Source: an uncultured Rikenellaceae bacterium (lineage in GTDB: Bacteria > Bacteroidota > Bacteroidia > Bacteroidales > Tenuifilaceae). From it: a DNA stretch of 33,381 nucleotides. Made by a program: the position numbers and the translations under genes. Below are positions 5,691 through 8,060 of this stretch, in pieces (position 1 is the stretch's first letter; each line of letters starts with the position of its first letter). The DNA lies in the NCBI GenBank assembly GCA_964563065.1, contig CAZLXF010000002.1, positions 1 through 33,381 of the forward strand, read 5' to 3'. The notes under the pieces are model-generated. The model did no database searches, was not told the DNA's origin, and saw only the letters and a list, made by a program, of their open reading frames with translations.

Positions 5691-8060
5691 ATGAAGTTTT
5701 TAAAAAACATGAGCATAAATCGAAAAATTCAACTGGTTGTTGTTTCCCTGCTGGTTGTTCTCTTTGCTGCTTCTGCCATTGTAGTTTACTCAACTTCCTC
5801 CAAGCAATCAAAAGCCACTGTTGACAAGCAAATGATGCTGTACCTAAACCAACTTGACAACATAATTACACTGATTGAAAGGAATACCGAAACGGGCTTC
5901 AACCACAACGACTACATACAAATTAAACCGTACTTTAGCCAAAACCCATATTTTAAAACTGACTTCCCGTTTCTTATCGATATTTCTGGAAATTATCTGA
6001 TTCATCTATACAAAGAGGGGCAGAAATTCCCTCGCGAGCACCTAAAAGAAATGCTCACAAATCCTGAAAAGAAGGGAGTTATTACCTACGAAGAATACAA
6101 GAATTCGCAACGATATCAAGTTTCTCTCTACTTCAAAAAAATTGAGCCCTACAACTCATTCATTGCGGTTCCAGTAAACCAGCAGGAAACCTCATCTGCT
6201 TTAAGCAAAACCTTACTTCTTCTTATTATTCTAGTAATTGCTAGTTCACTAATATCCTTCTACGTAATACGAATAACCCTAAAACCATTCATGCTAGCAA
6301 TTGCTAAAATTAGCAATAATGTTGCACAACTGTCTAAAGGCCAAATAGCTTCTAAAGTAAGCCATTCGCACAACGACGAAGTAGGGCAAATAACGCAATA
6401 TCTTAACCAACTTATTGACGGAATTCAACGAACAACACACTTTGCGAAGAGCATAGGTAAAAACGAGCTGGATGTTGAGTTTATTCCCCTCAGCGAAAAC
6501 GATGAACTTGGAAACTCGTTGCTCGAATTGAAAAATGGCATGCTAAAAACAGCAAAGGAAAGCGAACAGCGAAAACAACAGGACGAACAACGAAACTGGA
6601 GCACCTCGGGAATTGCCAAGTTTGGCGACATACTACGTCAAAACAACAACAACCTGCAACTGCTTTCCGATAGCGTTATCCAAAACCTTGTAAACTACCT
6701 TGATGCTAACCAAGGGGGCTTGTTCATGCTTAACGAATCTGACAATAACAAACCATTCTTAGAACTCATTTCGGCCTTTGCCTTCAACCGGAAAAAAACC
6801 AAAACAAAAACCATTCTTTTGGGAGAAGGGCTAGTAGGAAATTGTGCTGTTGAAAAGCAATCCATTTACCTAAAAGAGATTCCCGAAGATTACATTGAAA
6901 TAACTTCTGGATTAGGCGATGCGCCTCCACGTTCGCTTTTAATTGTTCCTCTCAAACTTGAAGAAAAATTATTTGGAGTAATTGAGTTGGCCTCGTTTAA
7001 AGAGTTCCAGCCCCACGAAATAGAGTTCGTTGAAATTATTGGAGAAAGCATCGCCTCTACCCTCTCGGCTGTAAAAAACAACATCCGAACAAACGAGCTA
7101 CTAGAGCAATCGCAGCAACAACGCGAAGAAATGGCCGCTCAGGAGGAAGAAATGCGACAGAACATGGAGGAAATGCAGGCCACACAGGAAGAAATGGCTC
7201 GTAAAACCCTCGAAATGGAGGGTATGACTGCTGCCATTAACGAATCGCTCATTTTTGCCGAACTATCCGACGATGGCAACTTCCATATGGCTAATCCTAA
7301 CTTTATTAGCCTCACTGGCTATGGGAAAACAGAAATTGAAAGCAAGCGTATATCCGACTTTCTTCACCCCGAGGAAGCTGCAAACTTCCAAAAAGTATGG
7401 AAAAACATACTTACGGGCGAGCCATTTAAGGGAACTCTCAAGTGGATTAACCATAGCGATGAAGAAATTTATGTGCTAGCAAGTTTAAGTCCTGCCTTCG
7501 ACGAAAGTGGCCGCATTTTTAAAATATTCTTTCTAGGGCAAGATGTTAGCGAATCGAAAAAGCTTGAATTAAAAGCTCAGGCCCAAGCCGAAGAGATTGA
7601 ACAGAGCCTTATGGAGCTGGAAATGGAACAGGAGCTTTCCAAACAACGCGAACAAGAAATGGATGCCTTGCTTCAGGCGCTGGACACAACCTGCCTTGTA
7701 ACACAATTCGATCCGGATGGTCGCATAACATACATCAACAATAAGAATGTGGAAACCCTGGGTGATCCGAAAAGTAAAATCGAAGGGAAATTCCATGCCG
7801 AACTCGACCTACAGGCAAAAAGCAACCCTCAAGGGTACAAACAGTTCTGGGACGATCTGCTCCTTGGCATTCAGAAAATTAGGGAGTTTTCGCTTGATGT
7901 TAGCGGTAAAACTGTGTGGATATCAGAACACTATACTCCCATCAAAAACAAAGAGGGGAAAGTTATTAAAATTATAAATATTGGTATTGATATTTCTGCC
8001 TCAAAAGAAACAGAAAAAAAACTAAGAGAAGCTGTTAACGCTTTAAAGAAGGAGAAGTAA
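5691..8060 (+). CDS. Membrane sensor with no recognisable output domain: TM, extracytoplasmic domain, TM, HAMP, GAF, EE-heptad coiled coil, PAS, coiled coil, PAS
   Basis: Two TM segments (about residues 13-33 and 174-194) flank a region of about 140 aa. A HAMP-like segment follows ([18 protein letters not shown]...[16 protein letters not shown]). The GAF domain contains [15 protein letters not shown]...[21 protein letters not shown]. The coiled coil reads [27 protein letters not shown]. Two PAS-like modules follow. The protein ends without a kinase, MCP-signalling, cyclase or phosphatase domain. Confidence 0.8.
   Translation: [789 protein letters not shown]

Follow-up and report, generated by a model that had tools for sequence, protein, structure and literature searches.

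The element described here is a short glutamate-rich helix encoded by an operon from an uncultured Rikenellaceae bacterium (Tenuifilaceae in the GTDB lineage), on a stretch of 33,381 nucleotides which was analyzed as a whole and is referred to below as the window. The helix is located in a 789-aa sensor protein and occurs a second time in a PP2C (SpoIIE-type) phosphatase encoded further downstream in the same operon, and its sequence varies very little among the members of a large family of sensor proteins from Bacteroidota. Judged from sequence and gene context, we regard it as most likely (with a probability of roughly 0.6) a methyl-accepting coiled-coil (MAC) element that would be methylated by a neighboring CheR-type methyltransferase (CheR1) and demethylated by a CheB methylesterase, thereby tuning a kinase-less phosphatase partner switch.

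The glutamate tract of the sensor corresponds to residues 479-511 of the 789-aa open reading frame (ORF; translation of 7125-7223, plus strand) and forms the central part of a conserved module of 42 residues, hereafter the MAC module. A first-pass annotation of this DNA had described four heptads after the GAF domain, each opening with a Glu-Glu pair, one of which was said to match the methylation consensus of methyl-accepting chemotaxis proteins (MCPs). Translation confirms both statements: the four successive heptads start with E479/480, E486/487, E493/494 and E500/501, and the third pair belongs to an exact EExxA[ST] match (E493-E-M-Q-A-T498), the sole full fit among the four. The annotation was also right that the sensor has no MCP signaling domain, as no MCPsignal domain (PF00015) was found by Pfam in the 789-aa protein or in the 870-aa phosphatase. 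The domains recognized by Pfam in the sensor are a weak Cache-type match flanked by two hydrophobic segments, a HAMP domain (204-246), a GAF domain (322-458) and, in the C-terminal half of the protein, two PAS domains at about 525-621 and at 668-772; no output domain was detected by Pfam. The C-terminus of the sensor (7959-8060) lacks a NWETF-type pentapeptide for tethering of CheR. Recent DNA slippage was considered as the origin of the heptad repeat and was rejected, because the 21-bp periodicity of the DNA encoding the tract is weak (2.5 copies, 73% matches) and the protein sequence is conserved across orders.

The tract is real, but the same annotation had overlooked a second module. When all six frames of the window were scanned for three heptad-spaced Glu-Glu pairs, two sites only were returned, the sensor tract and a site at 11300 in the gene for the 870-aa phosphatase, whose MAC module follows the GAF domain at a position equivalent to that in the sensor and reads QELKENE-EELRQNA-EEMRATH-EELEKSN. 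Sensor and phosphatase share 32% identity over 428 aa, a region comprising the pre-GAF linker, the GAF domain, the MAC module and the first PAS domain. No third module was found with the module profile, neither between the PAS domains of the sensor nor elsewhere in the window; the inter-PAS linker (7560-7690) is acidic and helical, gave no match to the module profile and has its acidic pairs out of register.

An AlphaFold2 model of sensor residues 304-640 (mean predicted local distance difference test score 91) places the tract in the middle of a continuous helix of 79 residues (441-519), which reaches from the final helix of the GAF domain to PAS as a single straight helix without a hairpin. 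With the M/L residues taken as heptad position d and the central M as position a, the Glu pairs occupy positions b and c. This is the heptad register of the methylation sites of E. coli Tsr, where M309-E-Q-L-T-A-T315 can be set against M-E-E-[LM]-Q-A-T of the tract; the comparison was made with the first methylation helix (Tsr 296-316), and the Tsr sequence used (294-517) was checked against PDB entries. The methylated glutamate of each Tsr pair is the second residue, and encoded glutamines are also found at MCP methylation sites. Among the homologs of the sensor tract, the second Glu of an outer pair is most often replaced by Gln (9-11%).

The tract is conserved far beyond the close relatives of the sensor. 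Searching with the GAF domain plus the tract yielded 994 homologous proteins, mostly from Bacteroidota, and the motif is present in 113 of the 120 proteins listed. To avoid circularity, an alignment that is independent of the Glu pairs was built from 181 unique sequences, aligned by GAF homology and a T..LL anchor only. In this alignment the b and c positions of pairs 2-4 are Glu in 87-99% of the sequences (entropy 0.05-0.7 bits) and are better conserved than the hydrophobic d positions, at which M and L exchange freely (about 1 bit). The GAF homologs in the loci analyzed are all followed by the module, with the exception of a class of 268-aa proteins, which lack it because they end directly after the GAF domain. 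With a profile restricted to the module, a search of 1.84 billion representative proteins matched 3565 clusters (50% identity) at E<=1e-3 and 1348 clusters at E<=1e-10. The best 150 proteins, each representing its own 50%-identity cluster, contain two to nine module copies apiece; among the 484 unique modules of these proteins, the core EEE[LM]RQN[ML]EE[LM]x[ATS]TQE is conserved at 92-97% and its central Glu pairs at 95-97%. Family members with up to nine module copies include P0233 (925 aa), P0234 and P0244; P0233 shows six copies at about 485-900 with an exact spacing of 70 residues (ten heptads) and no PAS domain by Pfam.

These data bear on the possibility that the tract represents no more than an acidic coiled coil of a generic kind, whose match to the methylation consensus is due to chance. 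Designed coiled coils likewise show Glu-Glu pairs at heptad spacing, and the single full consensus fit would agree with such a view. However, the conservation of the module across the 3565 clusters (1348 at the stricter threshold), together with the near-invariance of the central pairs in the 484 modules, rules out a generic coil that drifts in sequence, and we consider a chance match very improbable. Conservation of the Glu pairs and of the heptad register in orthologs had been proposed as a check of the initial idea, and both were found to be conserved.

The enzymes encoded next to the sensor gene are consistent with methylation. The best match of CheR1 among solved structures is B. subtilis CheR (5FTW), and its S-adenosylmethionine (SAM)-binding motifs are intact (IWHAGCSTGQEVYS, ASDLN and CRNVIIYFN) and conserved in orthologs. 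CheR2, the product of the second CheR gene, shows degenerate sequences at the positions of these motifs (FWVANFDSGEDLYS, CSSIS and FRNQIIYYN). This degeneracy is retained in orthologs from Bacteroidales and Marinilabiliales; Cytophagales encode a single CheR with intact motifs. Because of the degenerate SAM motifs of CheR2, the two CheR genes probably represent one enzyme and one non-catalytic paralog, the latter with an adaptor or regulatory role. The earlier statement that two CheR genes and a CheB gene flank the sensor gene thus holds for all three genes at the level of Pfam domains, with the qualification that the second CheR is degenerate in its cofactor-binding motifs. The active-site Ser, His and Asp of CheB align with their counterparts in the T. 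maritima enzyme (3SFT) and do not vary among 13 orthologs, and from these motifs both CheR1 and CheB look active. The presence of a dedicated CheB implies that the putative modification is reversible.

The conserved loss of SAM motifs in a protein that kept the CheR fold might point to a different role of the module, namely that of a docking or pairing surface which binds CheR2 as an adaptor or forms mixed coils between sensor and phosphatase, with methylation being absent or secondary. The homology of the GAF-MAC-PAS parts of these two proteins and the absence of an output domain from most family members fit such a role. On the other hand, an intact CheR1 (or, in Cytophagales, the single intact CheR) and an intact CheB are always kept, which would make little sense without a substrate. 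As a replacement for methylation, docking seems improbable to us; as an additional function it is compatible with methylation, since the two do not exclude each other.

Linkage between module and enzymes was analyzed in both directions. Among 79 genome loci anchored on the motif, all of them from Bacteroidota and the best ones from metagenome-assembled genomes of Rikenellaceae/Tenuifilaceae (78-80% identity), 19 contain CheR and/or CheB within 10 kb, and 17 contain both. The second set consisted of 80 metagenome loci anchored on the receiver-less CheB subfamily, for which counts refer to the loci with enough flanking sequence. Here a module was found about 1.8 kb downstream of CheB in each of 45 loci, accompanied by a PP2C domain (36/36), SiaB (35/35) and an upstream CheR (63/64). 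The sensor gene lies between two CheR genes at about 33-35 of 48 loci (about 70%). The phosphatase module is thus the constant partner of the enzymes, and the sensor a frequent but optional addition. The operon is kept in Bacteroidales, Marinilabiliales and Cytophagales in the order (CheR), sensor, CheR, CheB, GAF protein, PP2C, SiaB, SiaC, with between-order identities of CheB of only 52-63%. At one Saccharicrinis locus (L054, 124-9358), a complete classical Che operon (MCP, STAS, CheY, Hpt, CheA, two CheW, CheR, a HATPase protein, CheD and a receiver-bearing CheB) is located directly upstream of the MAC operon, which has its own CheR and CheB that are only 26-31% identical to the classical set. 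The motif-anchored loci without CheR and CheB often show tandem arrays of two to five paralogs of about 770 aa with the architecture dCache_1-HAMP-GAF-module-PAS; examples are found in L008 (3942-12934), L009 (5865-17737), L023 and L076, none of which has CheR or CheB within 10 kb. These arrays look like a diversified receptor repertoire and are reminiscent of scattered MCP genes.

Proteins in which CheB and CheR are fused to such heptads provide a parallel. A query with NEELQS heptads retrieved 112 short proteins, many of which are named "CheB/CheR fusion protein" in the database and several of which contain PAS_10. The NEELQSxNEEL heptads of the fusion proteins stand directly after the CheR domain and ahead of PAS; for example, in P0189 the end of the CheR domain runs straight into NEELETMNEELSSTNEELETMNDEL. 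The first-pass annotation had pointed to heptads of this kind in CheB-CheR hybrids, and this proved correct. Since the Glu pairs are conserved, the heptads of the fusion proteins are real and linkage to CheR and CheB is seen in both directions, the status of the tract as a candidate methyl-acceptor is justified as had been suggested, although CheR1 alone of the two CheR proteins looks catalytic.

Several observations weigh against methylation of the module. Three of the four Glu-Glu pairs of the sensor do not fit the full EExxA[ST] consensus, some orthologs of the phosphatase have degenerate outer pairs, and several a positions of the heptads are polar (E, Q). In MCPs, CheR acts on a four-helix bundle, whereas the helix described here would give a coil of two helices. 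When all PDB chains were searched with the module profile (E<=10), with Tsr, Tm1143 and Aer among the chains of the library, no MCP was found, only designed coiled coils with Glu-Glu heptads. We do not claim homology to MCP methylation helices; because the profile finds no MCP, what the tract shares with MCP methylation sites is a brief sequence pattern in matching register, with no demonstrable homology. The R-Q-N residues of the core are as invariant as the Glu pairs, so the motif may be read by another partner or contact. Neither CheR nor CheB is encoded within 10 kb at 60 of the 79 motif-anchored loci. Finally, a 2022 preprint describes MAC proteins as experimentally uncharacterised (Vass et al. 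2022).

The main rival to methylation is that the module is nothing but a conserved signaling helix (S-helix or PAS N-cap type), which would pass conformational signals on from GAF to PAS, with CheR and CheB acting elsewhere. The invariant residues would then serve contacts between helices or between helix and domain. Such a role is suggested by the consistent placement of the module ahead of PAS, in a (module-PAS)n arrangement of 2-9 copies, by the equal invariance of R-Q-N and the Glu pairs, by the lack of nearby CheR and CheB genes at most motif-anchored loci and by the missing profile similarity to MCPs. However, packing alone hardly explains near-invariant glutamates at the outward positions b and c. 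In addition, the module is found at every assessable CheB-anchored locus, an alternative substrate is absent from the window, and the CheB/CheR fusion proteins carry the same kind of tract joined to the enzymes. Taking both sides into account, we consider a signaling helix without methylation unlikely.

If the tract is indeed a MAC element, we would envisage the following mechanism. The long helix between GAF and PAS probably pairs with the same helix of a second subunit, with the four Glu-Glu pairs facing outward at positions b and c. CheR1 would methylate glutamates of the tract and the receiver-less CheB would take the methyl groups off, and the resulting change in helix charge might tune the passage of a signal from the GAF side to the PAS domains. 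In the phosphatase, methylation of the module would set the activity of a partner switch of the SiaA/SiaB/SiaC type, the likely target of which is the co-transcribed TerB-ABC transporter. The 789-aa sensor would function as an accessory receptor: it would draw on the same adaptation enzymes and pass its signal on via the phosphatase, possibly coupled to it by pairing of the homologous GAF-MAC-PAS parts. The transporter is a candidate for the output of the switch because neither the window nor any related operon examined was found to encode a diguanylate cyclase (GGDEF protein; SiaD). Its gene, a TerB-ABC fusion, is located directly 3' of the SiaC gene at the loci from Bacteroidales, Marinilabiliales and Cytophagales. 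A histidine kinase was also considered as partner and rejected: MCPs, CheA, CheW and histidine kinases are all absent from the window, and kinases are nearly absent from relatives. The C-terminal tails of 100 close relatives contain PAS in 80 cases, SpoIIE in 5 and a kinase in none; for 46 distant representatives the domain counts are GAF 40, PAS 41, SpoIIE 3 and HATPase_c 1.

Extending this mechanism to the whole family, one might tentatively think of a chemoreceptor-like system of Bacteroidota in which adaptation by CheR and CheB operates without CheA, CheW or a histidine kinase. In a large repertoire of receptors of the dCache-HAMP-GAF-MAC-PAS type, often encoded in tandem arrays, the MAC helix would be the site of methylation. 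The receptors would converge on one MAC-bearing PP2C phosphatase, which would control the TerB-ABC transporter by way of the SiaB/SiaC partner switch, and the dead CheR would serve as adaptor. We offer this extended scheme as a possibility rather than as our expectation.

The features of the operon are compiled in Table 1. The gene for the 268-aa GAF protein is found at the same place, between the CheB and PP2C genes, in related loci. The PP2C domain of the phosphatase is SiaA-like; the NCBIfam SiaA model matches with 1.3e-49 over the PP2C domain only and below the family cut-off, and the scores of the NCBIfam equivalog models for SiaA and SiaC are both below their cut-offs. Linkage of the two conserved ORFs at the end of the operon was seen in Bacteroidales, and the available flanks of the Marinilabiliales and Cytophagales loci are too short to include them. 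The remainder of the window consists of housekeeping genes.

Table 1. Positions of the genes and sequence elements of the MAC operon in the window
Feature	Position	Strand	Basis
CheR1, CheR-type glutamate methyltransferase	4826..5665	+	Pfam CheR 4.7e-38 and CheR_N
789-aa sensor ORF without output domain	5691..8060	+	Pfam: transmembrane segment (TM), Cache-like, TM, HAMP, GAF, MAC module, PAS, PAS
MAC module 1 (residues 467-508)	7089..7214	+	Profile match E=1e-19
Glu-Glu pairs in MAC module 1	7125-7130, 7146-7151, 7167-7172, 7188-7193	+	Translation
CheR2, CheR paralog	8085..8918	+	Pfam CheR 8.6e-20; 33% identical to CheR1
CheB methylesterase, catalytic domain only, no receiver	8924..9484	+	Pfam CheB_methylest 7.3e-49
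268-aa membrane protein with GAF	9497..10303	+	GAF homologous to sensor and phosphatase GAFs
870-aa PP2C (SpoIIE) phosphatase	10307..12919	+	Pfam: TM, GAF, MAC module, PAS, PAS, PP2C
MAC module 2 (residues 313-353): LLQEAQQMTQELKENEEELRQNAEEMRATHEELEKSN	11243..11365	+	Profile match E=1.5e-13
SiaB-family protein kinase (DUF6272)	12958..13533	+	NCBIfam SiaB_fam_kinase 2.5e-52, above cut-off; Pfam DUF6272
SiaC-family regulatory phosphoprotein	13549..13932	+	Pfam SiaC 1.2e-42
TerB + ABC ATPase + ABC-2 permease fusion	13972..17061	+	Pfam; operon synteny
Two conserved ORFs (303 aa and 145 aa), no Pfam match	17118-18029, 18049-18486	+	Travel with the operon

In textbooks, methylation by CheR and CheB figures as the memory of bacterial chemotaxis, and it is rarely discussed apart from CheA and MCPs. 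Should methylation of the MAC module prove true, adaptation by glutamate methylation would extend to partner switches based on serine/threonine phosphatases, and a function could be assigned to several thousand sequence clusters which are now annotated only as "GAF/PAS domain protein". The operon described here represents a compact case, in which a single CheR that appears active is combined with one CheB, two short and well-defined candidate helices and a phosphatase that is easily assayed.

Compared to known systems, the tract resembles the methylation region of MCPs (Tsr 294-316) in its acidic pairs at 7-residue spacing at positions b and c, in the match of MEELQAT to MEQLTAT and in the occasional Gln at the second position of a pair. 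In contrast to MCPs, the proteins described here have no MCP signaling domain, no hairpin or four-helix bundle and no similarity to MCPs at the profile level, and CheA and CheW are not encoded in the window. Methylation by CheR outside of MCPs is not without precedent, as CheR is reported to methylate acidic pairs in PhoP (PMC8546571). With the P. aeruginosa SiaABCD system the operon shares a PP2C phosphatase, a SiaB-family kinase and a SiaC-family protein in the same gene order. It differs from this system in that the TerB-ABC transporter follows SiaC at the place of the diguanylate cyclase SiaD, and in that the similarity to SiaA is confined to the PP2C domain and stays below the NCBIfam cut-off. 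Among the papers available for searching, none specifically reported a connection of CheR/CheB with SiaABC, or with PP2C in Bacteroidota.

An experimentally studied relative is B. cereus RsbK, a CHASE3-HAMP-GAF-S-helix-HK-REC protein (HK, histidine kinase; REC, receiver), whose S-helix after the GAF domain is methylated in vitro by the CheR-type protein RsbM (PMC4574943, PMC12848376). RsbK signals through the PP2C phosphatase RsbY (PMC4574943, PMC12848376), and RsbM is an orphan without a paired methylesterase (PMC4574943). By this published description, both systems comprise a sensor with a HAMP-GAF-helix arrangement, a CheR-type gene (here CheR1, directly upstream of the sensor gene) and a PP2C partner switch. 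RsbK, however, is a histidine kinase of the hybrid type and carries a receiver at its C-terminus, whereas neither a histidine kinase nor a receiver is present here; RsbY is a separate PP2C response regulator, whereas the PP2C domain described here is fused to GAF-MAC-PAS; and in contrast to the orphan RsbM, CheR1 is accompanied by a dedicated CheB.

The concept of MAC proteins was reportedly named by Wuichet and Zhulin in 2010. According to secondary sources, MAC1 refers to proteins with CheB and CheR fused to them and MAC2 to those with CheB and CheR encoded separately; MiST 3.0 offers profiles for both. The preprint mentioned above describes MAC proteins as receptor and kinase in one (Vass et al. 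2022). The likeness to the module described here lies in a non-MCP coiled coil with MCP-like Glu pairs and in CheB and CheR being encoded alongside, as in MAC2. The differences concern the kinase, which is part of MAC proteins according to these secondary sources and is missing from both module-bearing proteins of the operon, and the output, which here would run through a PP2C phosphatase and a SiaB/SiaC partner switch. In addition, the heptads of the fusion proteins read NEELQS[TA], which differs from the heptad sequence found here. MAC2 as first defined may already cover the kinase-less architecture of this operon. The element is thus of a known kind, a predicted MAC element, and is set apart by the absence of a histidine kinase, by its PP2C/SiaB/SiaC output, by the dead CheR paralog and by a large, receptor-like repertoire.

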